Source: Edaphobacter aggregans | GTDB lineage: Bacteria; Acidobacteriota; Terriglobia; Terriglobales; Acidobacteriaceae | Assembly (NCBI RefSeq): GCF_003945235.1 | Contig: NZ_RSDW01000001.1 | Span: forward strand, 5,130,001 to 5,162,000 | Direction: 5' to 3' | DNA: 32,000 nucleotides | In this document: one piece after another, positions 1 to 23,998 of the stretch | Numbering within the stretch: position 1 is the stretch's first letter | How the letters are laid out: the number at the start of each line of letters is the position of its first letter | Made by a program: the position numbers and the translations under genes | The notes under the pieces: generated by a model | Seen by the model: the letters and a program-made list of their open reading frames with translations, nothing else | What the model was told of the DNA's origin: nothing | Databases searched by the model: none

Positions 1-731
1 GGATACTCACGTTGTTGTTCTTTCGAGAATTGATTGAGGAGCGGTTCCAATTGGGCATCCGCGGCGTCGAGGCTAATTCCTGGTCGCAGTTTGGCGACAA
101 CACCGCCACCACGGGCGTCGCCAATTTCCTGTGGCAGATACACGTCCGCTCCCCAGCCCCACGTGAAGTTGGGACGGGTGACGCCAATGATGGTGTACTG
201 CTTGTGATCGATCTCGAGCATCTTGCCGACGATGGTCGGATCGCCATTGAAATGGCGCTGCCAGAACCGGTAATGGAGCATCACGACAGGTTGCGGCTCC
301 ACTCCGTCCGGGGAGTCGGATGGGCCGAGGTTGCGGCCAAGTAGCGGCGGCACGCCTAGCGTTGGGAAGGTTTCGCCGATCCCGAAGAACGCAATAACGC
401 CTTCGGGAAAATCGCGTCCGGTAACGACGAGGGCGCGCGCGCTCCAGGTGGCGAGACCTGTAAAGGTGTGTACCTTGCGCAGTTCCCGCAACTGGGATCC
501 CGAGAACCAGACATCAGAGATATTGCCGCGCGGATCCGTGATGCTCAGGTTGGTCAGTCGGTCGACATCGGCATATGGAAACGGATGCATCAGCACGCCG
601 TTAATCACGCTGAATACGGAGACGGTTGCGCCGATACCCAGGGCTAGAGAGATAATTGCCGTCAGAGCGAACTTTGGATTTTTAACGAGCTGCCGCAGTG
701 AGTAACGGAAATCCTGAAGAACCGTCAGCAT
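1..731 (-). CDS. ADOP-family / MacB-like FtsX permease, N-terminal part (continues beyond the left window edge)
   Basis: Absent from the ORF track because there is no stop in the window. Manual minus-strand translation from the ATG at 731 gives MLTVLQDFRYSLRQLVKNPKFALTAIISLALGIGATVSVFSVINGVLMHPFPYADVDRL... and stays open to position 1. The LQDxRYxxRxLxKxPxF start followed by a TM helix is the hallmark N-terminus of acidobacterial duplicated orphan permeases and MacB-type permeases. Confidence 0.8.
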   Translation of the reverse strand, partial: MLTVLQDFRYSLRQLVKNPKFALTAIISLALGIGATVSVFSVINGVLMHPFPYADVDRLTNLSITDPRGNISDVWFSGSQLRELRKVHTFTGLATWSARALVVTGRDFPEGVIAFFGIGETFPTLGVPPLLGRNLGPSDSPDGVEPQPVVMLHYRFWQRHFNGDPTIVGKMLEIDHKQYTIIGVTRPNFTWGWGADVYLPQEIGDARGGGVVAKLRPGISLDAADAQLEPLLNQFSKEQQREY

Positions 732-860
732 ACTCGACCCTCGCGGCGTGATGCCAACCATGATCGCATGCGATTGCTGCTCCGACCAGTTCTCCACCCA
801 TTCAAGTATCGATTGGCGCGAAATCTCCGAAGCTGTAGCGCGATATACAGGAGTTCATCT

Positions 861-920
861 GCCGAAAAACGGTGTTATCGGCAACTTCGAGTCGAACTTG
901 CCGAAAACCCGACTTGCAGG
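861..920 (+). repeat. Tripartite intergenic repeat, copy R1 (type II arms)
   Basis: gccgaaaaac-ggt-GTTATCGGCAACTT-cgagtcg-AACTTGCCGAAAAC-ccgacttgcagg. Arms B and C pair at 12/14 positions. It aligns with the copies at 2817, 4253, 5048, 7037, 9010 and 9730. Confidence 0.85.
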
Positions 921-1079
921 CACTACATTGCACAGACGGCAACCTAAACAACACGAAGGGGCGTGGTTATCGACTGTCCTCAACTGGGTGTTGAGGCACT
1001 CTGATAAGAGTGCTGAAAAAAGCCGAAGGGTCAAGTCGAACGCCGTTATAATTCGTCCAAACGGACGGAGGCTATAGGA

Positions 1080-1745
1080 ATGCGTCGTCTAGCTGCTCTC
1101 ATCGCTCTTATCTTCGCCATCCCTTCCACCGCGATCTTCGCACAAACCCGCGTAATGAATATGACGGCTATTCGGAATCGACCATTTACAGCAACCGAAA
1201 GTCACACCGGGCCGAACTTTATTGGAGCTGTCACGCAAAAGATAGCCCGCAACTCAGAGGGAAGTCTGTATTACCAGGCCCCGGAGGGAACGATTTACAT
1301 CTTCGATGTCACTAGCAAGACCAGGACGACATTATTTGTAACTTCCAGGCGCTATCGTGTTGATGCGATGCCTCAGCTTGCTGCAGGGGTGGTGTCAGAG
1401 GAACAAGTTGCGCGGATGGCGGCGCGTGTCGATCAGGCGCGGCCTGTGCATGTTGAACAAAACGGAATTATTCAGGATGGCCACTCGATTGGCACAAAGA
1501 ATATTCAAGGCTTTGTAGCATTTGGGCATCTCACAACATTCAAAGGGACCGATGAAAAAGCAAATATCACAGACAGGACAGAAGAGGTTTGGGAGTCGCC
1601 GCTCGTCGGTGTGATCAATGCCAAAACCGAGGATCACGTCGGTGGCGAAAACTCGACGATGATCCGTGGAAATTTTCAGATGACCGAGCCCGATCCAGCC
1701 CTCTTCCAAATACCAGCCGGCTACCTTCCTGAAAAAGGGACTTAA
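1080..1745 (+). CDS. Hypothetical secreted protein (221 aa)
   Basis: ORF with GGAGG 8 nt upstream of the ATG. The N-terminus MRRLAALIALIFAIPSTAIFAQ looks like a signal peptide. No family recognised. Confidence 0.6.
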   Translation: MRRLAALIALIFAIPSTAIFAQTRVMNMTAIRNRPFTATESHTGPNFIGAVTQKIARNSEGSLYYQAPEGTIYIFDVTSKTRTTLFVTSRRYRVDAMPQLAAGVVSEEQVARMAARVDQARPVHVEQNGIIQDGHSIGTKNIQGFVAFGHLTTFKGTDEKANITDRTEEVWESPLVGVINAKTEDHVGGENSTMIRGNFQMTEPDPALFQIPAGYLPEKGT

Positions 1746-1751
1746 ACTGCA

Positions 1752-1991
1752 CTACACTTTCCGAACGAAGTGTTCTTGGAAAAGCGCTTGCGCCTTCTGG
1801 GCCCCCGACTCCGTCATTCTCACGGACTTTGCTGCGTTCTGAGGATCGGAAATGTACCCTCTCTTGTAAAGGCGATCCATAGCGTTCCAGTCATGTCCTT
1901 TCCAGGCTCGTATACCCATACCTTCCGTGAAAGTGGTCAGGTGTAGGAGCGCGAGAACCATTTCGTCAACCTTGTCTTCGTCATATTCCAT
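1752..1991 (-). CDS. Small DUF6429-like protein (79 aa)
   Basis: Internal ATG at 1991 with GAGG upstream. The sequence MEYDEDKVDEMVLALLHLTTF..RAWKGHDWNAMDRLYKRGYISDP..AKSVRMTESG resembles DUF6429-type proteins as I recall them (unverified). The longer ORF-track N-terminus (to 2162) looks non-coding. Confidence 0.5.
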   Translation of the reverse strand: MEYDEDKVDEMVLALLHLTTFTEGMGIRAWKGHDWNAMDRLYKRGYISDPQNAAKSVRMTESGAQKAQALFQEHFVRKV

Positions 1992-2219
1992 ACAGACCTC
2001 GCTTTGATTGCAGTATCGCGATCTCAGCATTATGCCAGTGGAACAAACTTCAGCCCAAGTCACATAAGGACTACCGAAGGTGTCAGTAGCCGATGGGATG
2101 ACGAACAGTCCGAAAACTCGACTTTTCGGGATGTAGAACAGCCACTCTACGAACACCGTCACCGTGGGCCGGTCCCGAATGCAATTCGTGATAGGTCCAC
2201 GATGTCGGAGTTTGTGTGT

Positions 2220-2684
2220 TTAGGGTTGTGCATAATATCCGTGACGTGTTCTCACAATCAGGCCCGGCCTGTCTACCCTTACCTCAACACGGTGGTATTC
2301 GTTTGCACTTTGCGCAATCTGAGCGTCAAAGGTGATCTCGTATTGAAAGAGTTCACCACGTTCGGTGTCGCCCGTTTGAACTTGCGTAGTTGCTACACCG
2401 ATGAACGAGGAGACCACAGCCGATGTTGGCTTTAGAAGCACGCTCTTGAACGATGTTATGTTTCGTGCCGAATCATTGTCGAAGACCTTGAAGTCCTGCT
2501 GTTGAAGATCGGTTACCCACTGTCCAGAGTTCCTCGTGACGATGACATTCAGGTGTACGCTCCGAGGAGCCGGACTGCCTTCAGGAGATTTCTGCTGGGC
2601 GAAAGCAGGCACGGTGCAAAGCAGGATCGCCTCCAGAAAAAGACACACGCGTTTGTCTTTGAATATAGATTGGCTTTGCTTCAT
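2220..2684 (-). CDS. Secreted 'VWFA-related acidobacterial domain' (TIGR03436-like) mini-protein lacking the VWA core
   Basis: Signal peptide MKQSQSIFKDKRVCLFLEAILLCTVPAFAQQ. The N-terminal part (VHLNVIVTRNSGQWVTDLQQQDFKVFDNDSARNITSF) and the C-terminal part (YHRVEVRVDRPGLIVRTRHGYYA) match the two ends of TIGR03436-type proteins. At 154 aa there is no room for the central VWA domain. Confidence 0.6.
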   Translation of the reverse strand: MKQSQSIFKDKRVCLFLEAILLCTVPAFAQQKSPEGSPAPRSVHLNVIVTRNSGQWVTDLQQQDFKVFDNDSARNITSFKSVLLKPTSAVVSSFIGVATTQVQTGDTERGELFQYEITFDAQIAQSANEYHRVEVRVDRPGLIVRTRHGYYAQP

Positions 2685-2816
2685 TCGACTTCACCAGCCG
2701 TGAGATTTACTCTAACAATTCACTTTTGGTGCTGCCCCTAACGGAATTATCTGCAACTGCTTTGCCCGAAACTCGCTTCGGCAGCTTTCTTTGGTCCAAC
2801 TTTCCATGGCCATACT

Positions 2817-2867
2817 CCCACAAAACGGGGGTTATCGGAAACTTCAACCGAACTTGCCGAAAACCCG
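2817..2867 (+). repeat. Tripartite intergenic repeat, copy R2 (type II), with its right flank displaced to 3069-3082
   Basis: cccacaaaac-gggg-GTTATCGGAAACTT-caaccg-AACTTGCCGAAAAC-ccg. The expected flank (c)ccgactttgcagg reappears at 3069-3082, after a ~200-bp insert. Confidence 0.8.
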
Positions 2868-2873
2868 TGCCAG

Positions 2874-3064
2874 CTCAACCGGTCGATGCAACACTATCTA
2901 ATCAGCTGATCCACAAATGCTTACCCTGAAGAATCGATCTGTTTGGCTGATGTGGCCAAACCTAGCCAGGGTAAGGCTCCGGCTGATCTAACCTTAGCCA
3001 GCGCATTTAGCTTTTGTTTTCAATGAATGTGGGTCTGAGCTGAGTGTTGCGTCGACCCATTGAG
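2874..3064. repeat. 191-bp hairpin-rich element bounded by 22-bp imperfect inverted repeats (MITE-like)
   Basis: The left end is ctcaaccggtcgatgcaacact (2874-2895). The reverse complement of 3043-3064 is ctcaatgggtcgacgcaacact (19/22 identical). Internal nested hairpins include gcttaccctg (2919-2928) with cagggtaaggc (2967-2977), and gtttggc (2941-2947) with gccaaac (2955-2961). Confidence 0.45.
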
Positions 3065-3259
3065 ACCACCCGACTTTGCAGGAAGCTGGCTGACCTACTG
3101 CGGTCGAGGAGCAATCAGTAGTCGAGAGGTGTCTATACCTTGTGGCTCCCTATCGCGCTCGGAACAGCAATCGAATCGGAGGCGCGCAGGTCGCTAGCGA
3201 TCGCAGAACGGCGGGATATAGTGGAAGCGTTAACTGAAGAATACTAATTGGGAGTTGTT

Positions 3260-4147
3260 ATGAAGGTTGGCAACATCGCTTTAACGATATTGCTCTTTGA
3301 ATTTCTTGGCACTCCATTCGCGTCGCCGAAGATCGCTATGCCCTTTCAGAATCAGCAGCAATCTGCTGTGACGGCACAACACATCGAGACGGTTCCAGAA
3401 CTGCATGCAAAGCTCTCAGCTGATCAGCAACTAGTATTCGACCGTGCAGGCAAGCTCTTTGATCAAGGTAAGTTTGCCGAAGCGACACCACTCTTTCGCG
3501 AACTGCTGACGCAGGAACCAGGGGATCCTGTGCTCGCCAAAATCACGGCCGAGTGCGCGATTAACGGTAATGACTACTCAGCCGCAAAGCGGCTTATCGA
3601 CCCGGTCTTAGCTGCAAATGAGACCGATTGGCAGGCACATACGTTGCGAGCACGTCTGGCGGCACAGAGCGGAGATAAGGCTACTCGCGACGTCGAAATT
3701 GCTCTCATCTCCAAGCTGCATGAACAGGCGCTGATACCCGGGCAGCTAACCCAGTACCCTATTGAGCGAGACTCACTTCCGAACGGCGGTTCGATACTGA
3801 TCTTCCAGTCAATCTATCCGTGGGGCAACTTTAAAGTCCACAACTACGCGCGCATCTTCGACATGGACGGAAAGCTGCTTCGTCGTATCACGCTCGAGAG
3901 CGCTGACTTTGACCAACCGCCCTTTGCGAAGGAACATCCGGCCGAAGCGGTGGCAGGCGGACGCCGTTTCTCTTATGACAGTTATCAGACCGGGCCTACA
4001 CAGCCGAACGGACAACACACCGAAATGCATGCACTGTTTGGATTCGTCGACAAAGAACCAACCTACGACGAGATGCGCACGCGCTTCCTGCAGCTCGCGA
4101 CGGGCGGGGGCCAGCCTACCTCAACGAACGCGCACCCTGCGCCGTGA
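3260..4147 (+). CDS. Hypothetical secreted protein with a TPR-like N-terminal region (295 aa)
   Basis: ATG at 3260 (the ORF track starts at a TTG at 3248). Hydrophobic N-terminus MKVGNIALTILLFEFLGTPFASP. A helical TPR-like segment reads GKFAEATPLFRELLTQEPGDPVLAKITAECAINGNDYSAAKRLIDPVL. Confidence 0.6.
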   Translation: MKVGNIALTILLFEFLGTPFASPKIAMPFQNQQQSAVTAQHIETVPELHAKLSADQQLVFDRAGKLFDQGKFAEATPLFRELLTQEPGDPVLAKITAECAINGNDYSAAKRLIDPVLAANETDWQAHTLRARLAAQSGDKATRDVEIALISKLHEQALIPGQLTQYPIERDSLPNGGSILIFQSIYPWGNFKVHNYARIFDMDGKLLRRITLESADFDQPPFAKEHPAEAVAGGRRFSYDSYQTGPTQPNGQHTEMHALFGFVDKEPTYDEMRTRFLQLATGGGQPTSTNAHPAP

Positions 4148-4252
4148 GCCGTGGCAACATCAGCTCTCTTCCAAGCGCCCCTCGGCGGCGATGGGTTGGT
4201 AACACGAGACGACTTGCATGGGGAGTGGTCAGAGCCAGAAGGTCGGGTCGCT

Positions 4253-4334
4253 CCCGCAAAACGGGGTTTTGGGAAACTGCAACCCGGCTCCTGAGTGTCT
4301 GACCATGCAATTTCCGAAAACCCGACTTTTCAGG
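4253..4334 (+). repeat. Tripartite intergenic repeat, copy R3 (type I, long 31-nt spacer)
   Basis: cccgcaaaac-ggg-GTTTTGGGAAACT-(31 nt)-ATTTCCGAAAAC-ccgacttttcagg. A remnant resembling arm C plus the right flank (ggtaacacgagacgacttgcatgggg) lies just upstream at 4198-4224. Confidence 0.85.
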
Positions 4335-4376
4335 AACGCCACCAACTCAGCACCAGCCGTAAGGTTAGGTAACGCT

Positions 4377-4985
4377 TCATTTCGAGTCTCGGTTTGAGTG
4401 AAGATGTCGAGACGAAGGGCAGAATTTGTGGAGCAAGTGTTGAGTCTCTTGCTCTGGTTCAAGGTCCTCCAAAACACTCAAGACTTCCTCATGTGTTTTT
4501 GCATTCTTTGTCATTACTGCCCAGTACTCGTCGTGGCTTATATGTATGAAGAGGTCGCCACGGCTGGGAACGATGTAGGCGTCCCATCCAAAGACGAAGC
4601 ACGGAAGAATGAACGCAGCTAACTCAACGACAGCACCGTTACGAAACCAGTGCGCTGGCGCGATCTCAAGGGGGCGGTTTTCACCGAAACCACGACGCAT
4701 CATTTCCACCATGGACCACCCAGTCTTTTCGAGTTGTGGGCTGCCTATGTCGGAAAGCTTAATCCACAGCAAAGCACCGTAAAACATACTCTCGTCTTCG
4801 GCCCCAAGCATGGAGGCCAACCTAGAGAAATATGTAGCTCGTAGCGGGGTTTCCGGGAACTTCAGATAGAGGGCATTTGCTTCCGGATCGTCGTAGCGCA
4901 ACGCCCGTTCATCAGCTTTGATTCCGGTATTCCATTCGTTCCTCGCGAAAAACTGGCGAGCTTCTTCTTCAGTCAATGCAGTCAT
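4377..4985 (-). CDS. Hypothetical cytoplasmic protein (202 aa)
   Basis: ATG at 4985 preceded by GGAG (cggagacgaccATG). Protein MTALTEEEARQFFARNEWNTGIK... has no signal peptide and no recognised family. The ORF-track extension to 5186 reads through repeat R4 and is rejected. Confidence 0.6.
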   Translation of the reverse strand: MTALTEEEARQFFARNEWNTGIKADERALRYDDPEANALYLKFPETPLRATYFSRLASMLGAEDESMFYGALLWIKLSDIGSPQLEKTGWSMVEMMRRGFGENRPLEIAPAHWFRNGAVVELAAFILPCFVFGWDAYIVPSRGDLFIHISHDEYWAVMTKNAKTHEEVLSVLEDLEPEQETQHLLHKFCPSSRHLHSNRDSK

Positions 4986-5047
4986 GGTCGTCTCCGAGAG
5001 CATGAAATCATCGTAAATGTTGGGATCGATGAACGGTCCTGTCAGTT

Positions 5048-5116
5048 CCCGCAAAACGGGGTTTTGGGAAACTACGACCTGCCAGAGCGAAGTTTCCGAA
5101 AACGTGACTTCACAGG
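5048..5116 (+). repeat. Tripartite intergenic repeat, copy R4 (type I)
   Basis: cccgcaaaac-ggg-GTTTTGGGAAACT-acgacctgccagagcga-AGTTTCCGAAAAC-gtgacttcacagg. Arms B and C pair at 12/13 positions. The spacer is identical to that of R6. Confidence 0.9.
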
Positions 5117-5317
5117 CATCATTCACACGGCGGCCAGATGGGCCCATATTCAGTCTGTGCTGTGTCTCGGAGATGTAGTTCCTCACGTACGATTCTCGAC
5201 TCGCAGGGGCAGGATCGTGTCCGGTACAGAGTTTGGCTCTATGGGTTTCCGCTCCACCTGAAATCGACCTGGTTGGCTGCTATGCTTGGGCGTGACGTCC
5301 AACAAACGCAGGTGGTT

Positions 5318-6862
5318 ATGCTCGCCTTTTCTTTTGCATTACTAGCTTTGCTATCCCCGCAATCACAGGTTCCGGCGCAGCCACCTGATATTCCCTCGTT
5401 CACCATCAGTGTCGACCAGCCTGTCTACAGTGGGCAACCGATCTGGGTTCGCGTTGTGGATGGTCCGCGAGCGAACATTCGCTACCCGTTTCATGCGGTG
5501 GTGGGAGACATCGGTTGCAATCGCCTGGAGGTAACGTTTAACGGAGTTCTACTCAAGCCGCTCCCGATACAAAGAGGCCCAACTACCATGATCGGTCCAG
5601 CATGTGGCTCTTCGGCTCCGCAAGGTTCTCCGTCGGATCGGCTTCCTCTTCACATCCTCTATCAGCTAACGTCTCCTGGGATCTACTCGGTGCGATGGAC
5701 TATAGGCTTATCTTTCCCATCGAGGGACGGGACGGCAAGCGCTAAACCAGAACCGCATTCTGACTGGGTCACGTTTCAAGTCGTCGAGACGACGCCCGAG
5801 CAACATGAGGCTTGGATCAAGAATCTGCTCGCCGATCCGCCTTCGGATGATGGACACTTGGCCGGCGACTTCCTCCCATCGTTACTTGCAGCGGCCCCGG
5901 ATCCGCGGGCTCTGAGTACCTTCGTGAAATACCTCTACTCGGACAATCCAATGGTCTCCGGAATGGCTGCTTCTGCGCTGGAAGAATTTCCCCAATCGCA
6001 AGTCCTTAGTGCCGTGGCCACGGCACTTGAGAAGCAAGGTCCCAGCGAACAACTTGCTTATTTTGCTACTTATCACAAGGGGTGGACGAATGAGGATCAA
6101 GTTAAGATTGTCCACGCTACAATTCCTTACCTACAACCCGGGAATTCAGCTGTTCCATCGGGAAAGCAACCACCCCCGTATGCTCCAACGCGAACGTCGG
6201 CGGCGATCAAATTGCTCCGGTTCATCTTTTACGTTCCCAATCACGCTTGGCCCGGCAATCCTGAACTCCAGTCCTACGTGGACACTCAGGTTCTTCAGGC
6301 GGCCCCGAACATCATGGCGAAGGCGAACATGAACGCGGTTCAGGAGCTGGCCGAATACCTTGGATCGATGTCATCTTCCCCTCGCGCCCACGAGCTTCTT
6401 CTCCAGATTGCGGAACGCTCAGACAATGCAGCCACGCAGGCGCGAATCTGCCTCACCTGGCATCCTCAGTCTGAAGACCTCTCCCATCTTGCCGCAGTTC
6501 TTATCGCCCCTGGTGATGCCGATTCCCTTGGCACCGATCGCAGCAGTCTGCCATACTCCCTCGTTAAGGCTTATGGAGACAATGCTCTTCCGTACCTGGA
6601 ACGCGCGGTCGCGAGTTCGCCCTACGTGTGGGTCCGTGTCGCGTCCGCACAACAGCTGGTACTCCACAACCGGCCCATCGGATTTCAGTTCTTATTGGAC
6701 CAGCTCGTTCAGGACCCATGGTCAGCCAATCGTGCTTACAAGCCGCAGCTGATCCGATGGGTTCGCGACAACTTCCGCACAAACCTTCCACCCGATGCGT
6801 CGGACGATCTGGTCACAAGCTTTTTGCGTAGCCGCGTGGCGGAACTATCTCAACAAAAATAG
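5318..6862 (+). CDS. Hypothetical secreted protein (514 aa), possibly with HEAT/ARM-like helical repeats in the C-terminal half
   Basis: ATG at 5318 with AGGTGG upstream. Signal-like N-terminus MLAFSFALLALLSPQSQVPAQ. Upstream in-frame starts (5138, 5282) extend toward or into repeat R4 and are unlikely. Confidence 0.6.
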   Translation: MLAFSFALLALLSPQSQVPAQPPDIPSFTISVDQPVYSGQPIWVRVVDGPRANIRYPFHAVVGDIGCNRLEVTFNGVLLKPLPIQRGPTTMIGPACGSSAPQGSPSDRLPLHILYQLTSPGIYSVRWTIGLSFPSRDGTASAKPEPHSDWVTFQVVETTPEQHEAWIKNLLADPPSDDGHLAGDFLPSLLAAAPDPRALSTFVKYLYSDNPMVSGMAASALEEFPQSQVLSAVATALEKQGPSEQLAYFATYHKGWTNEDQVKIVHATIPYLQPGNSAVPSGKQPPPYAPTRTSAAIKLLRFIFYVPNHAWPGNPELQSYVDTQVLQAAPNIMAKANMNAVQELAEYLGSMSSSPRAHELLLQIAERSDNAATQARICLTWHPQSEDLSHLAAVLIAPGDADSLGTDRSSLPYSLVKAYGDNALPYLERAVASSPYVWVRVASAQQLVLHNRPIGFQFLLDQLVQDPWSANRAYKPQLIRWVRDNFRTNLPPDASDDLVTSFLRSRVAELSQQK

Positions 6863-7036
6863 CTGGATGCTCTGATGACCCGGCCTACCTCTTCGCTTAC
6901 GAGAGATCAGGCCGTTGAACTCTGCAATATTTGCAAGATCGGATGATTTGATGTGATTTGAGTGCGTCTTGCAAATAGCCCCTTCTGGATTGTGTCTCAC
7001 AAAATCGAGAGTCTGCATGAAGTGCGGAAGGTAGTT

Positions 7037-7109
7037 CCCGAAATACGGGGTTTTGGGCAACTACGATCTGCCCTCCAACCCGAACTTGCCGCAAAGCCGA
7101 CTTTACGGG
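7037..7109 (+). repeat. Tripartite intergenic repeat, copy R5 (diverged type I)
   Basis: cccgaaatac-ggg-GTTTTGGGCAACT-(20 nt)-AACTTGCCGCAAAG-ccgactttacggg. Confidence 0.8.
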
Positions 7110-7231
7110 CGGTACGAGGATTACTTCCGGAATGGCGGTGACTCGTTAACCCCAAACCTTCATTCAAGGACATACAGCAGGCGAAGCCGCACAGAGCGGT
7201 TGACGTCTTGCCGAAGTTATCTGCGAAAGGG

Positions 7232-7669
7232 TCACTTATCTTTGTGGGATTTGCGCCTGTTTCCAGGCGCGCTGGGTGCGGTGTTTGGTTGATTGCCTGG
7301 GCCCGGAGCGGGCCTTACTTTGCCGGTTCCCGATCCCTCAGCAGACGCTTCGGGTAATTGTGCACTAGTTTGGGGCCGGGTAAGTGCTATCCGGATCGCC
7401 ACGCCGTTCTTTTTGCCAGGATCGATGTTGTAGTCGGCGGTGACGGGCAGATTGTTGACGAATCCGTCGCGCAGGAGGCTGAACATTGCCTGGCGGGCGG
7501 GAAGGTTGTTGTCATTTCGAAGTTGAAAGCCGTAAGCACCATCGCTGATTGCGTTGAGGCAGAAGACAGCTTCTACATCCAGCTGATCGTTTGGAGGACC
7601 AAAGCCGGTGCCAAGGTCGTGGGCGCGAAGAAAGACAACTTTTCCGGTTTTTTCAAGCAGGTTGGGCAT
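7232..7669 (-). CDS. Hypothetical protein (145 aa): N-terminal domain paralogous to the C-terminus of the upstream gene, plus a disordered P/G/K-rich tail
   Basis: GGAG lies 8-11 nt upstream of the ATG at 7669, which is 12 nt after the upstream stop. TGKVVFLRAHDLGTGFG...GFQLRNDNNLPARQAMFSLLRDGF...DY aligns with residues near the C-terminus of the 7682-8755 product. Confidence 0.65.
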   Translation of the reverse strand: MPNLLEKTGKVVFLRAHDLGTGFGPPNDQLDVEAVFCLNAISDGAYGFQLRNDNNLPARQAMFSLLRDGFVNNLPVTADYNIDPGKKNGVAIRIALTRPQTSAQLPEASAEGSGTGKVRPAPGPGNQPNTAPSAPGNRRKSHKDK

Positions 7670-7681
7670 GGTTGAGTCTCC

Positions 7682-8755
7682 TCAGGGGTTCGCGACGCGA
7701 ATGATTTCACCAGCGCGGGGGCCCTTTGTTACGTAGTCGAGACGGATGGGACGCCCGCCAACGAAGGCGGATCGAAGCAGGTCGAACATATCTAAACGGG
7801 TGGGTGCGTTCTGGTCGGTACGCAGTTGGAATCCGAAGGAGAGCAGGGGTTCTTCGGCGAGTTGCACGATGACTTCAGCGTCGAGGAAGTTCGGGGCTTT
7901 GCCGAATCCGCTGCCCAATTCGTGAGCTCGCAGGAATGTGATGTGGCCCACGGTCTCGATCAGGCTTCCGATAGAATTGACCCGGCCGTAGCCGATCACA
8001 TCCATAACCTGAAGATCCACAGCCGATACGGGATTGACCACGCCGCTGTTCTCAAACTGATTGAAGGAGTCGTTTGTGCCGCCTGCCCAATCGCGGGTAT
8101 CCAGATGATTTACGGAAGAGTCGTTGAACTGTTTCAGCAGAGTGGTGCCGTTGTCGATGGAGAAGAAGTTGCCAGCCCCACCTTTCAGCGACCTCTTTCC
8201 GGGACCGGTGTAGGCGAAACAGTCGATCAGGCTAAAGGTATTATTGCTGCCGGAGATGCCGGTGCGACCCATCACTTCAGCAATTTCATGCGCGGCAATA
8301 CCATGGAAATCAAATGTGTTTGGCGCGATCGGACCCGAGAAGGTGAAGGCATTTCCCGTACCGAAGGTAGTGCCTCCATCATTTGCCATATCGTCGGGAA
8401 TCTTGCCAAGCGCTTTGGCTTGCGCTCGGGTCAGCTTCCAGGTTCCGGTGCCGTTGGTGGGATCGGTCGAACTCATCGAGCCGCCAGGACCGATGGCGAT
8501 GGCATCGTTCTGTGTGGAGGCGTATGCAGTGATCTGGTTAAAGAGATCGGCGTACGAGATAGAAACGAACCAGAACGAACTCTCTCCGAAAACGTCCGTA
8601 CCGGTTACAGCATCAACGTTGATGTTGACGTGAATGTCGTCGGAGAATGCGTCGGTGAAGACCTTGGCGGCAGCAATCCAAGCCTCTTTGGCTGCTGTTG
8701 CATTGCTGCCGAAATTAGTGTCGAACCCGGACGTGAAGGTAGGAGTGATAATCAT
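7682..8755 (-). CDS. Hypothetical protein (357 aa): N-terminal metalloprotease-like domain with an HExxE variant motif (AAHEIAEVMGR), plus a C-terminal ~95-aa domain shared with the downstream gene
   Basis: Preferred start is the ATG at 8755 (GGAGG upstream; MIITPTFTSGFDTNFG...). The ORF-track start at 8944 adds 63 implausible residues. No signal peptide. The ends ...DLQVMDVIGYG and HEIAEVMG recall NF038122-type putative metalloproteases, from memory only. Confidence 0.6.
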   Translation of the reverse strand: MIITPTFTSGFDTNFGSNATAAKEAWIAAAKVFTDAFSDDIHVNINVDAVTGTDVFGESSFWFVSISYADLFNQITAYASTQNDAIAIGPGGSMSSTDPTNGTGTWKLTRAQAKALGKIPDDMANDGGTTFGTGNAFTFSGPIAPNTFDFHGIAAHEIAEVMGRTGISGSNNTFSLIDCFAYTGPGKRSLKGGAGNFFSIDNGTTLLKQFNDSSVNHLDTRDWAGGTNDSFNQFENSGVVNPVSAVDLQVMDVIGYGRVNSIGSLIETVGHITFLRAHELGSGFGKAPNFLDAEVIVQLAEEPLLSFGFQLRTDQNAPTRLDMFDLLRSAFVGGRPIRLDYVTKGPRAGEIIRVANP

Positions 8756-9009
8756 TCGACCTCCGCTGTGCTCAGGTGCTTCAGGGGCCGTCAACCATAA
8801 CTCGAACGCTTGCGCCCTGTTCGTCACCCCCTGGAAAGATGAATCATAACTGCCATGTACGGGGGAACCGGGCCGAATGAATTGGCAAACGATACCACAA
8901 CTCACTTGACCCAGTCTATGCACATGCTGCGGACGCGACAGCAAATTCTGGACGTGTGATTGCGTAACCGGAAAGTAACCCGTGATGGCGGCTTGTCACT
9001 TCTGTGGTT

Positions 9010-9078
9010 CGCGAAAAACGGGGTTTTGGGAAACTACGACCTGCCAGAGCGAAGTTGCCGATAATACGACTTTCCGGG
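9010..9078 (+). repeat. Tripartite intergenic repeat, copy R6 (chimeric: type I arm B, type II-like arm C)
   Basis: cgcgaaaaac-ggg-GTTTTGGGAAACT-acgacctgccagagcga-AGTTGCCGATAAT-acgactttccggg. Arms B and C pair at only ~9/13 positions. Confidence 0.85.
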
Positions 9079-9151
9079 CATTGCGGGATTACTTCCGGGT
9101 TGCCGGGTGATGCGGACATTTCGACCCGGATGGCCGATTCCGTCCCATCCG

Positions 9152-9571
9152 TTAGTCTGCTTTTAGGACCAGTATTGGACATGGATTGCCTGCCACTTGT
9201 TTCCCTGCGACCCACTTGTACTTCGATTTTGGGAACAAGAACCAACTGATCAAAGGACCATTAAGGCCGCTCCTCTGCGGGAGAACGACTACGTCGAGCG
9301 TTCCTTTGCTGGGAATTACAACTCGGTACTTGCCATCGGGCAAAAGGCCGAAGCGTACCCTGCCACTCTGGTCGGCGATCGCAGAATGCACCAGCTTGTC
9401 TCCGGCATATAGCTGCAATGGGGTTGCGACAGCAGGCGTGTTATCAAAGAAGACCTGCAAATCAAGAGCTTCGTCGTAGTGCAGGTTTATAGGTAACGGT
9501 GCCGGACAATCGCCTGCCCAAGCAATAAAACATACCGAAAGGACGATTAGGAGTGTCGTAAGTCTCAGCAT
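9152..9571 (-). CDS. Hypothetical secreted protein (139 aa), possibly with a carboxypeptidase-regulatory-like beta-sandwich
   Basis: ATG at 9571 gives the signal peptide MLRLTTLLIVLSVCFIAWA. The segment SGRVRFGLLPDGKYRVVIPSKG resembles CarboxypepD_reg-type motifs (weak). Confidence 0.55.
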   Translation of the reverse strand: MLRLTTLLIVLSVCFIAWAGDCPAPLPINLHYDEALDLQVFFDNTPAVATPLQLYAGDKLVHSAIADQSGRVRFGLLPDGKYRVVIPSKGTLDVVVLPQRSGLNGPLISWFLFPKSKYKWVAGKQVAGNPCPILVLKAD

Positions 9572-9729
9572 CAATATCTCCCGGTGGATCGTAGCACTTG
9601 CGAGACTGCCCAGATAGTAACTTCTCAATTGCGCTCACGACCCCTACGACCGTCCCCTCCTGTTGCGGCCGGTTTGTCGGCAATCCGGAAATAATCCTTG
9701 GCCCAATACCGATACCCGTCGTCGAACTT

Positions 9730-9787
9730 CCCGCAAAACGGGTTATCGGTAACTTGAACGAACTTTCCGATAACGTGACTTCCAGGG
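9730..9787 (+). repeat. Tripartite intergenic repeat, copy R7 (type II, 5-nt spacer)
   Basis: cccgcaaaac-gg-GTTATCGGTAACTT-gaacg-AACTTTCCGATAAC-gtgacttccaggg. Arms B and C pair at 12/14 positions. Confidence 0.85.
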
Positions 9788-9907
9788 AACGACAGTGGTA
9801 TAGCCCGTCAAAAGGCAATCAATGAAGATCAAGACCTTCTTTGGAGGGTGACGTGCGACCGCCGATAGCCTTCATACAAAGCTGAAAGGTGGTACCGTTT
9901 TCAGCAT

Positions 9908-10423
9908 ATGAGGCGGCTATTCACGGTTGGCGTATTCCTTCTGATTGCAACTTGCGCCTCGCCTTGCCAAAAGATAAAGCGCGCTTATTGTGGGGGCGAC
10001 GCAACCTTGCAGGTGGTCTACGTTGATGGGACAACGAAGTCACTGCCAAGAGAGCCGATGCAGGTTGGGTGCGATGGTGTTACCGTCGCAGACGACAAGC
10101 ATACAGTTGGCTGGTCTGTGCTGGTTGCGAACTGCTGTACTTCTTACCCAATACCCGTAGCAGTTGCAGTATTGCGCGATGGCCGAAAGCAGGTCTTCTC
10201 AGCCGAACAAATGGTTTGGCGATGGAGATTCATTAGCGGTGCCAAGAAGCTTGCAATGCTGTCAGGGCCTGTTCACGGAAATGCGGGGCAGGCTACTTTG
10301 TATGACATTCGTAGCGGACAACAATTGGCTACATGGAATGGAAGCGGTGAATCGCCGGGATGGACATCCGGTTGGGAACCGGAATTCGGCCCTCCTAACG
10401 ACCCGGTAGGCGCTCCTAAATGA
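9908..10423 (+). CDS. Hypothetical secreted (possibly lipo-) protein (171 aa)
   Basis: Signal-like N-terminus MRRLFTVGVFLLIATCASPC. Cys-rich. No recognised family. Confidence 0.55.
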   Translation: MRRLFTVGVFLLIATCASPCQKIKRAYCGGDATLQVVYVDGTTKSLPREPMQVGCDGVTVADDKHTVGWSVLVANCCTSYPIPVAVAVLRDGRKQVFSAEQMVWRWRFISGAKKLAMLSGPVHGNAGQATLYDIRSGQQLATWNGSGESPGWTSGWEPEFGPPNDPVGAPK

Positions 10424-10445
10424 ATTCCCCAAGGTCATCGTTCTT

Positions 10446-10472
10446 CCCTGTAAACGGGGTTTGCGGCAACTT
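10446..10472 (+). repeat. Half copy (arms A and B only) of the tripartite repeat, R8
   Basis: ccctgtaaac-ggg-GTTTGCGGCAACTT, starting 23 nt after the stop of 9908-10423. No arm C or right flank is recognisable. Confidence 0.6.
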
Positions 10473-10734
10473 CAAATTCTGATCCCGCCCCTAAGGCAGG
10501 CCATGGAAATGACAGAGTCTGGAAAGCCTGGAAAGCCATAAAGCCGGCTTCCCACCCTCCCCACACTCTTTGGAAATCCCTTTGGGATTACCACATTCCC
10601 ACGGCCTCGACGACGGGAGTAGGTATTTATAGGCAACGGCAGAGGCTAGCCGTTAACCTCAATTTGAGCCCCTAGCCCCGATCACGCCAGTAACGTATGA
10701 GCCGCCGAAGCTTTAGAATGCCTGGCTTTCGGTT

Positions 10735-11280
10735 TTACCAAGAGAAGCCACCCGAGACCGGGGGCCATGCCTGGTGGAGCTGGCGGAGGACAACAATGCG
10801 GCCAAGGTGATACGCGTTGTGGGCGGCGAGGCTAATGAGTTGGTCGCGTACAGACATGACCCGGGTGGGAGTGCCTGGACGGGACGGGCAGCGTACAGAT
10901 TCGTCAAGGTATCCGGTATTGCGAGCAGCAGCTGCGGCCTGCTCCGCGGTCTGGAGGAAGCGCTGGGATAGATGTTCCCAACTCTCGGCGTTGGTTTTGG
11001 AAGGGAAGCCATCAGAGGGGTGTGCGGGGAATGGCGTCTCGATGCCGCGAATCCAGTCGAGGCTGATCTGCTGCCAGAATGCAAGGTGCCAGAGCTCTTC
11101 GTAGATGGTGCGGGGAACGTTAGGGAGAATACGGTGAACGAGGTCCTCGTTGAGGCCTTCGATGATGTGGGCGGCTGGCGCGGCTGCGCTGTCGCCCGTG
11201 AGTGCCTGCGCGAGTTCGCTCATGAGTTGCTCCCTTGGCAAAGGTTTGTAGGGCTCGGGCTTTAGTTTACGAAAACGCAT
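10735..11280 (-). CDS. DinB/YfiT-like (DinB_2, DUF664-type) putative metal-dependent hydrolase family protein
   Basis: ELWHLAFWQQ ... AAHNAYHLGRIVVLRQL are the typical four-helix-bundle DinB-superfamily motifs. Its ATG overlaps the Pol IV stop codon (TGATG, 1-nt overlap at 11280). Confidence 0.75.
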   Translation of the reverse strand: MRFRKLKPEPYKPLPREQLMSELAQALTGDSAAAPAAHIIEGLNEDLVHRILPNVPRTIYEELWHLAFWQQISLDWIRGIETPFPAHPSDGFPSKTNAESWEHLSQRFLQTAEQAAAAARNTGYLDESVRCPSRPGTPTRVMSVRDQLISLAAHNAYHLGRIVVLRQLHQAWPPVSGGFSW

Positions 11281-12347
11281 CAGAGGAATAACTGGTGTCG
11301 CGTGCCTTCCTCTTCCGGATCACTGAAATTGCTCAATCCAACACCTACAAGTCGGAACTTCTGTTGTGGACTCAAGTCCACGCGCTTTCTAAGCAACAGA
11401 GCCAACTCAATGAACTCATCACAGGATGATGGTGGAGTAGGAGGCGTAAAGCTCCGAGTTAACGTGGCGAACTCACGGGTCTTTAGTTTCAGGACGACCG
11501 TGCGTGCGATCCTGGAGTCTTTGCGATAGGCGAGCCAGGTTTTTTCCGCAAGACGTCGAATAGCTGATTCGGTCTCGCTGAGAACGATGTCTCGCTCAAA
11601 GGTGTCTTCGGCGGAGATCGACTGGGTCGGTCTGTCTGACACTACTTCGCTCTCGTCTATCCCTCGCGCCAACTCGAATAGTCGTTTGCCATAGCGGCCG
11701 AATTGTTGATGAAGACTATCAAGCTCCATGCTCCTCAAATCTGAGAGGATTCGCACGCCTAACTTCTCGAGACGCTGTTCCGTCACTTTGCCCACACCAG
11801 GGATTCGACCAACGGGTAGCGGGGTTAGGAAGTTCTCCACTTCGGCTGGCTGAATGACGAACAAGCCGTTCGGCTTGCGCCAATCGGACGCTATCTTGGC
11901 CAGAAACTTGTTCGGGGCAACGCCTGCTGAGGCGGTCAGGTTCAATTCGTCTCGAATCTGCTTGCGAATCGCGATGGCAACGCGGGTTGCGGTCGTCAGG
12001 CCCGTCTTGTTTTCCGTTACATCGAGATAGGCCTCGTCGAGCGACAGGGGCTCAACAAGATCGGTATGAACTTTGAAAATCTCCCTTACAGCCGCTGATA
12101 CGGCACGATACCGAACGAAGTCTGGAGGAATGAAAACTGCCTGTGGGCACATTCGTTCGGCGCTGATTGCCGGCATGGCAGATCGGATGCCAAAGCGTCT
12201 TGCCTCATAGGAGGCTGCGCATACTACGGAACGATTTCCTTTCCAGGCGACGACGACCGGTCTGCCGCGAAGACCTGGGTCATCTCTCTGTTCGACCGAG
12301 GCGTAAAACGCGTCCATATCGACGTGAACAATCTTCCGGTTGCTCAT
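11280..12347 (-). CDS. dinB: DNA polymerase IV (Y-family)
   Basis: MSNRKIVHVDMDAFYASVEQRDDPGLRGRPVVVAW... and SLDEAYLDV are canonical Pol IV motifs. 355 aa. Confidence 0.95.
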   Translation of the reverse strand: MSNRKIVHVDMDAFYASVEQRDDPGLRGRPVVVAWKGNRSVVCAASYEARRFGIRSAMPAISAERMCPQAVFIPPDFVRYRAVSAAVREIFKVHTDLVEPLSLDEAYLDVTENKTGLTTATRVAIAIRKQIRDELNLTASAGVAPNKFLAKIASDWRKPNGLFVIQPAEVENFLTPLPVGRIPGVGKVTEQRLEKLGVRILSDLRSMELDSLHQQFGRYGKRLFELARGIDESEVVSDRPTQSISAEDTFERDIVLSETESAIRRLAEKTWLAYRKDSRIARTVVLKLKTREFATLTRSFTPPTPPSSCDEFIELALLLRKRVDLSPQQKFRLVGVGLSNFSDPEEEGTRHQLFL

Positions 12348-12360
12348 CTGTTAGCTCTCA

Positions 12361-12396
12361 TTTTATTTGCGTCGATCGTGCCACTTCCTTGTATTC
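12361..12396 (-). promoter_or_regulatory. Candidate SOS-type operator/promoter block upstream of dinB
   Basis: Read toward dinB: GAATACAAGG-aa-GTGGCACGATcgacgcaAATAAAAT-N12-ATG. The GTGGCACGAT, AATAAAA and GAATACAAG blocks recur before imuA. Confidence 0.4.
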
Positions 12397-12535
12397 AGAG
12401 CTCCTAGCCTGGCCAAGCACCCTGATTCCACCGTTGATAGTGCAACCTACACGCCCTCTAGGACTTAGCCGCATATTGTCTACGCACTAGAAACGATGCA
12501 CGTTGACTGCACAGGCTTATGTCGAGTTATTCTAG

Positions 12536-12568
12536 GTGGCACGATAGCGAATAAAAGGCGAATACAAG
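12536..12568 (+). promoter_or_regulatory. Candidate SOS-type operator/promoter block upstream of imuA
   Basis: GTGGCACGATagcgAATAAAAG-N12-ATG, with GAATACAAG inside the N12. A possible -35 TTGACT sits at 12503-12508. Confidence 0.4.
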
Positions 12569-12569
12569 C

Positions 12570-13697
12570 ATGGCCCATTTTACACAAAGCGCGATGCTGA
12601 AACGCGAGATCGAAGCAAAGCTGGCGTCGCGAATACCCGCTGCTTTGTCGCCTCAGGGATTGCAGGCGCCGAGGCTCATGGCAACTGGAGTTCCGGAGAT
12701 TGATGATCTGTTGGGCGGAGGACTGCCAATTGGTGGCATTAGTGAATTCACGGGTTTGGGAAGCTCTGGGCGAACTTCGCTTGCGCTCTCGCTGCTCGCT
12801 GAAGCATCTGGTGATTCTGCTTGTGCCTATATCGATGTGAACGACAGCATTGACCCAAGAAGCGCTGCGGCTGCAGGTGTCTATCTGCGAAACCTGCTTT
12901 GGGTTCGCCTGGCTTCTGTTCCACACGAGTCGACTACTCGAAAGGCACCGTCCACTGCTCCATCCCTCGCTTCATCAGCGAACACGGGGAAGTTGGCGGG
13001 ACAGCATTGCGGGGGACATCATCCTCGCACTGAGACAAAGGGACTTAATAGAGCTTTAGAAAAGATGCTGGCGGAAAAGGCAGAAGCGAGGATCGAGAAA
13101 AAGGTGGGGACACCGGGCTATCCCAATCGCAGGCTAAGCCTGGAGGCAGCGCCCGAAGAGCAGATCCGGTACGAACACTTCAATTCACGACGGTCGGATG
13201 CGTCCGACCAGCTCCGGCAGGCAGATGAACGGGCGGCTATGGAAGCTCGTCAGCGCATTCAGGCTGCAGTTATTTTGGGTTCTTCGATGCGAGGACGGGA
13301 GAAGCCATGGAATCGATTGGAGAATTCTATTCGAGCGACAGACCAGATCCTGCAATCGGGTGGCTTCCGTGTGGTCGTTCTCGATCTCGCATCCGTTCCA
13401 CAAGATCAGGCGCTGCGGATTCCATCAGCGACGTGGTTCCGCTTTCGACGCGCGGCGCAGGAGAGCGATGCGATCTTCCTGTTGCTGACGCAGGTAGCAT
13501 GTGCAAGATCGAGCGCGCTGTGCGTGCTCGACTGCTCAGGTGGAATTTCAAGTTCTTCTCAGAATGTCCTCTGTGGGTTGTCGCGGTCGGTTGAGGTGGC
13601 CCGTCAACGCTTAAGCAGTCCATTCGCCAAGAAGGCGCCGGGCCGGGCTGTCACCTGGGAAGCAACACCAGTCTGGATGCGCGCGGCGGGGAGATAG
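12570..13697 (+). CDS. imuA: ImuA (RecA/SulA-like component of the imuA-imuB-dnaE2 mutasome), with a ~130-aa central insertion
   Basis: ATGVPEIDDLLGGGLPIGGISEFTGLGSSGRTSLALSLLAEAS...LLWVR and ...ILQSGGFRVVVLDLAS match the ImuA core. It sits immediately upstream of imuB and dnaE2. Confidence 0.85.
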   Translation: MAHFTQSAMLKREIEAKLASRIPAALSPQGLQAPRLMATGVPEIDDLLGGGLPIGGISEFTGLGSSGRTSLALSLLAEASGDSACAYIDVNDSIDPRSAAAAGVYLRNLLWVRLASVPHESTTRKAPSTAPSLASSANTGKLAGQHCGGHHPRTETKGLNRALEKMLAEKAEARIEKKVGTPGYPNRRLSLEAAPEEQIRYEHFNSRRSDASDQLRQADERAAMEARQRIQAAVILGSSMRGREKPWNRLENSIRATDQILQSGGFRVVVLDLASVPQDQALRIPSATWFRFRRAAQESDAIFLLLTQVACARSSALCVLDCSGGISSSSQNVLCGLSRSVEVARQRLSSPFAKKAPGRAVTWEATPVWMRAAGR

Positions 13698-13699
13698 CG

Positions 13700-22384: not shown

Positions 22385-22425
22385 AAATGTGTACTCTCCT
22401 ATTTGAGATAGGAGAGTACACATTG
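22385..22425. promoter_or_regulatory. Perfect 18-bp inverted repeat (5-bp spacer) abutting the padR start codon; candidate operator and/or SD-sequestering hairpin
   Basis: aaatgtgtactctcctat-ttgag-ataggagagtacacattt. The padR SD (GGAGAG) lies inside one arm. Confidence 0.6.
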
Positions 22426-23887: not shown

Positions 23888-23998
23888 CGGACCTCCGGCA
23901 ACTCGGTCCAAGAGTGGGCTGAGTTGAGTTGATTGTACAAAATTTGTACAAATCCGGAGAGTAGCTTAGTAAGTTGCTAAAACTAAACAACTTAGAAA

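Follow-up and report, generated by a model that had tools for sequence, protein, structure and literature searches.

The 32-kb stretch of Edaphobacter aggregans DNA analysed here (the window) raises the question of what a short intergenic repeat is doing between genes that are functionally unrelated to each other. Seven full copies of this repeat and one left-half copy, all on the plus strand, lie at positions 859-10475 and form an array that a preliminary description, made from the letters of the sequence, had likened to the cassette arrays of integrons, with a selfish repeat or a regulatory element as alternatives. Two facts constrain the answer most. The polarity of the repeat is kept locally and is independent of the direction of the genes and, so far, of replication, and there is one site at each boundary and none outside the arrays. 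The best explanation that we can offer, and we offer it tentatively, is that the repeat would be the polar, two-armed recombination site of a cassette system other than an integron, with its enzyme acting in trans.

The array stands out clearly from the rest of the window. A degenerate pattern of the left arm (AWACGGKGTTWKSGGNAACT, with up to 2 mismatches) matched eight times within 859-10475 and not once in 100 shuffled sequences, and in the other 21.5 kb it found no copy. A covariance model of the kind proposed in the preliminary description was built from the seven full copies and separates the array from the remainder of the window: it scores its own copies at 51-90 bits (E 1e-12 to 5e-24), the top match outside the array reaches 12 bits, and beyond the full copies nothing in the 32 kb exceeds 15 bits. 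The count of eight copies in one orientation was thus borne out by repeat finding, left-arm pattern and covariance model, and the absence of a clear copy from 10.5-32 kb by the last two. Relative to open reading frames (ORFs) with family or homologue support, the copies are also intergenic as described, and exactly one site stands at each of the eight consecutive transcription-unit boundaries within the array.

The left end of the array is formed by R1 (859-922, arms 862-890 and 893-920; 70 bits, E 2e-18), which lies 130 nucleotides (nt) upstream of the start of a MacB-like permease gene. It is followed by the interrupted copy R2 (2815-3082; 51 bits), in which the left arm occupies 2816-2847, the inner part of the right arm 2849-2867 and the outer end of the right arm 3069-3082, and then by R3 with its long centre (4251-4336, arms 4252-4282 and 4307-4334; 80 bits), R4 (5046-5118, arms 5047-5078 and 5088-5117; 90 bits, E 5e-24), R5 (7035-7111, arms 7036-7066 and 7081-7109; 78 bits), R6 (9008-9080, arms 9009-9040 and 9050-9079, of differing variant types; 84 bits) and the short-centred R7 (9728-9789, arms 9729-9757 and 9759-9787; 63 bits). 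The right end, 260 nt from the stop codon of a DinB_2-family gene, is the solo left arm R8 (10444-10475), which matches the pattern with 0 mismatches and a left-arm hidden Markov model (HMM) at 10452-10475, and which scores just 14.5 bits with the covariance model because its right arm is missing. One of two supposed right-end remnants, at 3069-3082, proved to be the outer end of R2's own right arm, displaced by a 200-bp insertion, and the other, at 4198-4224, fell below every threshold used. A solo right arm at 2103-2130 (plus strand), absent from the earlier list, was recovered by repeat finding, pattern match and right-arm HMM and subdivides the first module. It would possibly pair, around a DUF6429 gene, with a degenerate left arm at 1722-1745 (plus strand; CTTCCTGAAAAAGGGACTTAAACT) that overlaps the 3' end of ORF 1080-1745; this putative arm is weak, with 2 mismatches to the arm pattern and 7.8 bits. 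R4 and R6 are 87% identical over 75 nt, and the identity of their 17-nt centres, from which recent local copying had been proposed, was confirmed. The same centre type is found in R5 and in another genome, which points to a widespread subfamily and not to a private copying event between the two.

The anatomy of the repeat was derived from 89 aligned full-length copies from many genomes. It is a two-armed unit of 60-85 nt, with a left arm of consensus TCCCGnAAAAC-GGGG-TTTTCGGnAACTTCG and a right arm, the imperfect inverse of the left, of consensus CGAACTTGCCGAAAAC-CC-GACTTTnCGGG. An arm is about 28 nt long and is a palindrome like those of repetitive extragenic palindromes (REPs). Since the sequence within one arm already forms a small palindrome (CCGnAAAAC-GGG-GTTTTCGG) and the second arm inverts the first, the repeat unit is a four-fold arrangement of a single motif. 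The symmetry is imperfect at fixed places, A11 standing opposite A62 and C63, and the left arm having one extra G (GGGG versus CCC). AAAAC is kept in the left arm in 84-88 of the 89 copies and GACTT in the right arm in 83-89 of them, and this conserved difference between the arms, together with the extra G, defines the polarity of the site.

The gap between the arms falls into three discrete classes, of 0-5, 7-14 and 21-28 nt. Covariation from arm to arm is absent: variable positions pair like shuffled partners at nearly all of the 28 pairs tested (19/55, 21/53 and 7/67 are examples), with a weak excess of pairing at four inner pairs (24/50, 29/45, 31/43 and 32/42). From linkage analysis, the inner block of positions 24-50 is inherited as a unit (z 8-12), and towards the outside the two arms vary independently of each other. 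Folded as single-stranded DNA, the copies of the window range from the R1 hairpin, with z = -4.3 on the plus and -5.2 on the minus strand, to R6, which at +0.7 and +1.5 respectively is no better than shuffled sequence. The likeness to attC sites that had been drawn from conserved inverted arms around a variable centre finds no support as far as an attC-like hairpin is concerned: the arms are conserved as sequence but vary independently, the folds spread widely and the lengths of the centre are discrete. Conservation of the sequence without an obligatory hairpin suggests a protein-recognition motif.

To place the array in a wider context, 185,579 species genomes were scanned with the left-arm pattern, giving at least 120 blocks of 8 kb (labelled L, as are the other comparison loci and contigs); these loci are ascertained through the left arm, and the block limits often cut the array ends. 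Among the matches listed, the repeat occurs in Terriglobus, Edaphobacter, Tunturiibacter, Granulicella and many metagenome-assembled genomes (MAGs) of Acidobacteriaceae, the named carriers being Terriglobus roseus, Edaphobacter aggregans, E. modestus, three Tunturiibacter species, Granulicella sp. L46 and strain KBS 89. Matches to the full model are confined, again among those listed, to Acidobacteriaceae and other Terriglobia, and judged by that model the pattern matches in other phyla are bare chance. Co-oriented arrays were seen in dozens of the Acidobacteriaceae genomes listed; one lies at 3.628-3.632 Mb in Terriglobus roseus DSM 18391 (NC_018014) and another at 4.216-4.224 Mb in Tunturiibacter gelidiferens M8UP28 (CP132939). 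A search of a plasmid collection with the consensus repeat gave one partial match, in Granulicella, and two 20-kb Edaphobacter loci (L121 and L123) are without repeats. Neither Rfam nor the literature on Acidobacteria that was searched yielded an earlier account of this repeat.

The polarity seen in the window is general. Over the 120 listed loci and the window, adjacent copies less than 4 kb apart have the same orientation in 80 cases versus 4 opposite, at spacings of 260-3674 bp (median 784), and 30 of the 38 blocks with at least three units are uniform in orientation. At least three units are present in 37 of 116 listed blocks. When the arms are read as an ordered series, a left arm is followed at a short gap by a right arm, making a full copy, 78 times, and a right arm is followed by a left arm, enclosing a module, 82 times; right arm to right arm (14), left arm to left arm (11) and left arm to right arm at a long gap (8) are the other transitions. 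The 82 intervals from right arm to left arm measure 365-3674 bp, with a median of about 750, and mostly hold one gene each. Over 86 loci (45 positive), orientation was unrelated to the GC or AT skew of the surrounding sequence, a comparison of low power made on 8-kb blocks, and arrays of opposite orientation occur on single chromosomes 0.3-1.2 Mb apart. Both results argue against the replication strand as what sets the orientation, and we rejected that explanation.

Several independent lines of sequence comparison indicate that the modules between the repeats behave like cassettes. The region is variable between strains. Two metagenome contigs match the right flank of the array at 92-93% nucleotide identity (blastn; L125 over 10735-14052 and L124 over 10735-12949), and in both the similarity is lost exactly at 10735, the stop codon of the DinB_2 gene and its array-side end; beyond this point L124 has 3 kb of other genes and no repeat. 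Modules are also re-used. The cassette at 4384-5078, which consists of gene 4377-4985 (minus strand, about 198 amino acids, no known family) and the left arm of R4, is 91% identical to a segment of contig L132 (blastn), where it lies between two repeats with the same gene-to-repeat polarity, in a four-site array with unrelated flanking genes. The gene has 219 homologues. Those with 72-74% identity belong to the core genome, where a photolyase gene and a cytochrome-oxidase operon adjoin them and no repeat lies close by; the metagenome relatives of the gene are 72-81% homologues with at most weak arm remnants. Because such core homologues are without repeats, the cassette genes look like recruited ordinary genes.

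A second case is the DUF6429 module (1751-2129), composed of gene 1752-1991 on the minus strand (Pfam DUF6429, E 2e-29) and the stretch downstream of it as far as the solo right arm. Two MAGs (L015 and L084) carry the module at 95% identity (blastn), the similarity stops at the outer ends of the arms, and in both MAGs a clear variant of the left arm precedes the module. In two other loci (L053 and L114) a 1.9-kb flank and the left arm next to it are shared, and divergence sets in at the centre of the repeat; an ArsR/SRPBCC operon stands at the edge of the array in L042 and inside the array in L117. Between L052 (2183-2756) and L055 the segment from a right arm to a left arm is inverted; the flanks are 85-91% identical and the interior cannot be aligned, which indicates an inversion and/or a replacement between the arms. 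The cargo is diverse. The longest ORFs of 105 modules match 89 Pfam families, none of them dominant, and the longest ORF of each interval runs in the direction of the site in 33 cases and against it in 38. In the window array, four genes are on the plus and six on the minus strand, and these ten ORFs are mostly without family, the exceptions being DUF6429, TPR and HEAT. The repeat-bounded modules that had been proposed thus find support in co-oriented arrays elsewhere, in strain variability and in the re-use of a module in L132. We found no Rfam match, no mixed local orientation and no invariant modules, the three outcomes named in the preliminary description as contrary to its proposal, and in the comparison of syntenic loci that it had suggested, the array region varies between strains and the module content is not constant.

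The repeat is also a target of mobile elements. IS110-family transposases are present in 12 of about 95 Acidobacteriaceae blocks, belonging to at least three lineages, each inserted at its own fixed position and orientation in the repeat, and the two halves of the target are kept. Subfamily A (1371 bp) goes into the left arm at CCCCGTT^TT and, in one case, into the corresponding place of a right arm, subfamily B at CCGAAAA^CCCG in the right arm, and a third type in the repeat centre (loci L111 at 3110-4480 and about 5100-6470, L016, L078, L084, L114, L116 and L064). A simple k-mer test of guide-to-target complementarity on the 3' non-coding region was not significant. That IS110/IS1111 elements target REPs and attC sites is established (PMC11208160, PMC11187229, PMC12288879), and the insertions consequently fit both a cassette site and a selfish repeat.

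A 2.5-kb element encodes a 297-aa tyrosine recombinase of Xer/IntI-like type together with an IS91-family Y2 transposase. It has inserted six times independently, always in one orientation and at one nucleotide of the left arm, and is bordered by CGTTT at either end, as seen in six left junctions (AACCCCGTTT/GAAC...) and three right junctions (...CTAACGTTT/TnCGGGAA) at L029 (2251-4786), L015 (3515-6050 and 7388-end), L091 (1669-4196 and 6772-end) and L115 (815-end). The recombinase is 33% identical to IntI1, is without the IntI-specific insertion of about 30 amino acids, and scores 192.6 bits versus the 265-bit NCBIfam cut-off for integron integrases. Judged from these junctions, the repeat is a recombination substrate for at least one enzyme of IntI-like type. 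The 200-bp insertion in the right arm of R2 (2868-3068, plus strand) is non-coding and resembles a miniature inverted-repeat transposable element (MITE). Copies of this element (TGCCAGCTCAACC...GAGACCAC) that are 92-95% identical occur in L064 (6552-6764) and L015 (7103-7341), each within a repeat arm. It inserts after AAAAC plus 3 nt, in the left arm in L064 and in right arms in the window and L015, and in all three genomes it has one orientation relative to the motif. From its insertion pattern it looks like a miniature site-specific element.

As a separate observation, a 97%-identical segment with a gene for a 767-aa acidobacterial VWFA-domain protein is shared by L032 (7287-8000) and L046 (3656-4369). 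It starts at a truncated left arm (AAAACCCCG/TCAGTCAG) in the former and after the left-arm-like CCCGTTTT in the latter, and abuts the same spot of the repeat in both.

How could such arrays arise? In the explanation that we prefer, a recombinase acting in trans would pair two sites, and a circle with one site and one to three genes would be inserted at, or excised from, an existing site. Each insertion would leave co-oriented sites on both sides of the module, and repetition would build arrays. Each module would bring its own promoter, which would leave gene direction free, in contrast to the single array-reading promoter of an integron. Candidates for the enzyme would be the Xer/IntI-like recombinase of the 2.5-kb element, which acts at CGTTT in the left arm, and the RNA-guided IS110 recombinases. 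We observed that the sites are polar and clustered, that each transcription-unit boundary has one of them, that the region varies between strains, that a module is used again in another array and that the asymmetric motif is kept family-wide; site-specific recombination itself, the position of a crossover and the enzyme are what we infer. The argument in favour is one of prediction. Inserting a circle with a single site will always produce a co-oriented pair, and conservative recombination therefore predicts both the polarity and the single site per boundary; insertion of a selfish repeat predicts neither, and for this reason a cassette-recombination site is favoured.

A number of observations weigh against this explanation. 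The repeats that flank the cassette shared with L132 are only about 65-82% alike versus 91% for the gene that they enclose, with the consequence that no crossover is readable at the nucleotide level, and the polarity of the ArsR/SRPBCC operon relative to the repeats is opposite in L042 and L117. Solo arms are frequent in the listed loci, 109 left and 60 right versus 78 full units, the left-arm count being inflated by the search pattern and by chance matches. Repeats are 0.77 identical within an array versus 0.735 between genomes, which amounts to almost no array-specific homogenisation. The discrete size classes of the centre and the linkage of the inner block (24-50) would fit copy-and-paste elements equally. 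No recombinase lies beside the array of the window, and among the ORFs up to 3.5 kb away from the ends of 30 arrays phmmer clustering found no recurrent gene family, as BLAST clustering of all ORFs in the listed blocks found no recurrent array-end family.

The rival that deserves most attention, possible in our opinion if somewhat doubtful, is the REPIN/MITE-type selfish repeat already named in the preliminary description, which stays a live alternative. Here an inverted doublet would be copied whole into intergenic DNA by a transposase acting in trans, of RAYT/Y1 or other type, and would accumulate in tolerant flexible islands, the modules moving through repeat homology or between composite-transposon ends; we regard this account of accumulation and module movement, too, as no better than possible. 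The arms are small palindromes in mutually inverted positions, as in REPINs, and the linkage of the inner block is what copying of the whole unit would be expected to leave. The three centre classes, the common solo arms, the near absence of array-specific homogenisation, the lack of arm covariation with some copies unfolded, the genes without polarity, the lack of a linked enzyme at the arrays and the one module in opposite polarity all speak for it as well. IS110 elements insert in the repeat as they do in REPs (PMC11208160, PMC12288879), and the inverted segment of L052/L055 points to arms recombining as ordinary inverted repeats. Co-orientation of 80:4, however, is without known precedent in clusters of REPs, REPINs or BIMEs (bacterial interspersed mosaic elements) and is explained neither by GC skew nor by chromosome position, and a selfish repeat would not be expected to place one copy at each of eight consecutive boundaries and none in the adjoining 21.5 kb. 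Target-site duplications were not evident in the repeat flanks, no case of presence or absence of the repeat alone was seen among the few syntenic pairs of relatives compared, and no Y1/RAYT gene was found among the recurrent ORF clusters of the listed 8-kb blocks, a search that was not exhaustive.

It is unlikely, in our estimate, that the arms are the terminal inverted repeats of gene-carrying transposons, a full copy being the point where two neighbouring elements meet or a product of deletion. Units of right arm, gene and left arm in an otherwise repeat-free context (L052) are compatible with this, as are units of left arm, gene and right arm (the DUF6429 module in L015, L084 and the window) and the independent variation of the outer arm parts. 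Abutting ends would not, however, be held at a gap of three narrow classes and conserved sequence with the inner arm halves linked across the centre. Both arrangements occur around genes, neither pair of ends being consistently the outer one, and no transposase lies between arms except for IS110, whose insertions are secondary and keep both target halves. A role as a cis-regulatory or RNA element, whether terminator, operator of a dimeric regulator or small RNA, seems to us very improbable. The repeat is a palindromic, conserved intergenic motif, and the lack of covariation fits a protein-binding site, but copies are found alike between divergent, convergent and tandem genes, the cargo has no function in common, and a polarity independent of gene direction is unexpected for an operator or a terminator. 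A search of the whole window against Rfam 15, Acido-1 and Acido-Lenti-1 included, as had been proposed, gave at E <= 1 only the transfer-messenger RNA (tmRNA) gene at 23999-24352 and an overlapping weak match to permuted tmRNA. No copy of the repeat had a match, and identity with a described RNA family was rejected. Scans for intrinsic terminators and sigma-70 promoters found none in any copy, with counts at or below the shuffle expectation, and we rejected these identities too.

We give equally little credence to the idea that the repeats are attC sites of a divergent but true integron, belonging to a CALIN (cluster of attC sites lacking integrase) with IntI encoded elsewhere in the genome. 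In its favour are co-oriented sites at cassette-sized spacing, diverse orphan cargo in a variable region and an AAC kept by the left arm; CALINs with no intI close by are frequent (PMC4889954), and Acidobacteria do carry chromosomal integrons (PMC8352920). Against it, GACTT takes the place of GTT, so that R''/R' pairing is broken by conserved mismatches, covariation is lacking, some copies are unfolded and ORF polarity is 33:38. The published attC model for Acidobacteria has the classical consensus GCCUAAC-AacuC-GUUgAAGC, beginning with GCCUAAC-AacuC-GUUgAAGCgGAC (PMC8352920, supplementary file 3), and the repeat, which begins TCCCGnAAAACGGGGTTTTCGG, is unlike it. The sole IntI-like recombinase near repeats, that of the 2.5-kb element, has no IntI insertion and stays below the cut-off given above.

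The surroundings of the array were also annotated. On its left is the 5' part of the MacB-like ABC permease gene (3-731, minus strand; Pfam MacB_PCD, E 2e-21), and an exact look-up of a protein from one cassette of the window, intended to lengthen the contig on this side, gave no record. Permeases of this kind and DUF3738 proteins recur in the listed repeat-containing blocks, and both belong to families expanded in Acidobacteria; Ser/Thr protein kinases fused to an FGE-sulfatase domain were noted in 24 listed blocks (for example L117, 2167-5250). On the right, a damage-response and mutagenesis cluster abuts the array at 10735-18413. It consists of the DinB_2-family gene (10735-11280, minus strand), identified with Pfam and forming the flank conserved by blastn in L124 and L125, a DNA polymerase IV (Pol IV) gene (11280-12347, minus strand), and the divergent imuA-imuB-dnaE2 cluster (12570-18413, plus strand) with an imuA-like RecA-fold protein, an imuB-like Y-family protein and DnaE2; the closest relatives keep the mutagenesis cluster at 92-93%. 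Within the array the GC content lies at 0.52-0.555, compared with 0.56-0.58 farther on, and the segment 26001-30000 has a very strong positive GC skew of 0.22-0.24 with a negative AT skew, far above the rest of the window.

The only recombinase gene in the window encodes a tyrosine recombinase of 441 amino acids (22586-23911, minus strand), 12 kb from the array and adjoining the tmRNA gene (23999-24352, minus strand; Rfam, 167 bits). This is a classical island integrase, and such a pair of genes is typical of a genomic island integrated at ssrA; the window has no further copy of the tmRNA 3' end that would mark the other end of the island. In seven other loci, tyrosine recombinases of about 400 amino acids likewise adjoin tRNA or tmRNA genes, and as ordinary island integrases they were rejected as the enzyme of the arrays. 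Short ORFs at 21717-22423 (minus strand), between the island integrase and an alcohol dehydrogenase (ADH)-like gene, may be fragments of a regulator or a transposase, and one of them, 22043-22423, has relatives in L099 and L108.

What these arrays mean depends on the reading adopted. They present an integron-like architecture in one of the most abundant families of soil bacteria, with a site that falls outside the criteria for attC and IntI, and surveys of the IntegronFinder type would probably miss them. Perhaps, and we put this forward more as a possibility than as an expectation, Acidobacteriaceae may hold an integron-independent cassette system, in which self-expressed chromosomal genes would be stacked and exchanged across genera at a bipartite polar site of about 65 nt by a non-IntI enzyme in trans, the recombinase of the 2.5-kb element or IS110 being candidates. 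If a recombinase does act on the repeat, the arrays would amount to a second cassette platform of independent evolutionary origin, and a true cassette system would offer a handle on how the large accessory, paralogue-rich genomes of Acidobacteria are assembled. If the repeat is REPIN-like, a local polarity of 80:4 would be novel within that class and would call for a mechanism. Under either reading, a landing pad shared by three IS110 lineages and an IntI-like element is a natural system for the study of target choice. In practical terms, the repeat gives rise to spurious ORFs, and in assemblies of Acidobacteriaceae it marks where flexible regions begin and end.

Compared with known systems, the repeat resembles REP, REPIN and BIME elements in its short, imperfectly palindromic arms, in being built as an inverted doublet and in its extragenic location. 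As with REPs and REPINs, solo arms occur as decay products, the family is restricted to one bacterial family and IS110-family elements use it as a target. It differs in the 80:4 co-orientation of neighbours, in its spacing of one copy per gene instead of tens of bases, and in the confinement of its copies to flexible regions in the sequences examined. The parallel with IS1111-attC and REP-targeting IS110 elements (PMC11187229, PMC11208160, PMC12288879) concerns the parasites of the repeat and not the repeat itself. Short sites that bound modules of one to a few genes, recurring in different contexts, recall the pdif modules of Acinetobacter plasmids. The pdif sites are dif-like, 28 bp long with an 11-6-11 structure and in alternating orientation, and their recombinase is encoded elsewhere. 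Our repeat, of 60-85 nt, with a centre of 0-28 nt, co-oriented and without dif-like arms, does not fit a 28-bp 11-6-11 site in length, variable centre or co-orientation, and we rejected a Xer/dif-type site. In Neisseria, the 20-bp repeat dRS3 of the neisserial intergenic mosaic elements (NIMEs) borders modules that are thought to move by transformation and homologous recombination. As with dRS3/NIME and the minimal mobile elements, family-specific repeats here flank exchangeable modules between conserved genes, and like dRS3 the repeat is an integration site for elements with IS110-like recombinases. To our knowledge, no array polarity has been reported for dRS3.

Integrons are the only well-understood site-specific system that stacks promoterless genes in arrays, and they are detected through the attC fold and IntI. 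The likeness to them is considerable: co-oriented imperfect palindromes of 60-85 nt, mostly single-gene modules of 0.3-3 kb, diverse and largely orphan cargo, a strain-variable region, the same cassette in different arrays, a polarity that would derive from conserved asymmetry of the arms, and insertion of IS110/IS1111-type elements into the site. The differences begin with the boxes RYYYAAC and GTTRRRY of attC. The left arm has nAAAAC, with AAC in 84-88 of the 89 copies, and the GTT core is missing from the right arm, where GACTT has A in 84 and C in 83 of the 89 copies at the places where TT is required. The attC hairpin is kept by compensatory change, whereas the repeat keeps its sequence, shows no arm covariation and has some unfolded copies. 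Cassette ORFs of integrons are mostly co-oriented with their sites, in contrast to the 33:38 of the modules here, which follow no common promoter logic, and the repeats of one array are no more alike than those of different genomes. We found no IntI in the window, in the 120 listed loci or at the 30 array ends, and all recombinases found score below the integron-integrase cut-off. The earlier remark that canonical attC cores and intI are missing was therefore correct, for the 89-copy alignment and for the regions just named, and a canonical integron was rejected on the GACTT core, the lack of covariation, the unfolded copies, the random gene direction and the absence of IntI. Of everything compared here, the array would appear to work most like a CALIN or a chromosomal integron array. 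Since the repeat departs from integrons in five of the eight membership tests run here, we file its arrays with the cassette-array kind and not as a member of the integrons.

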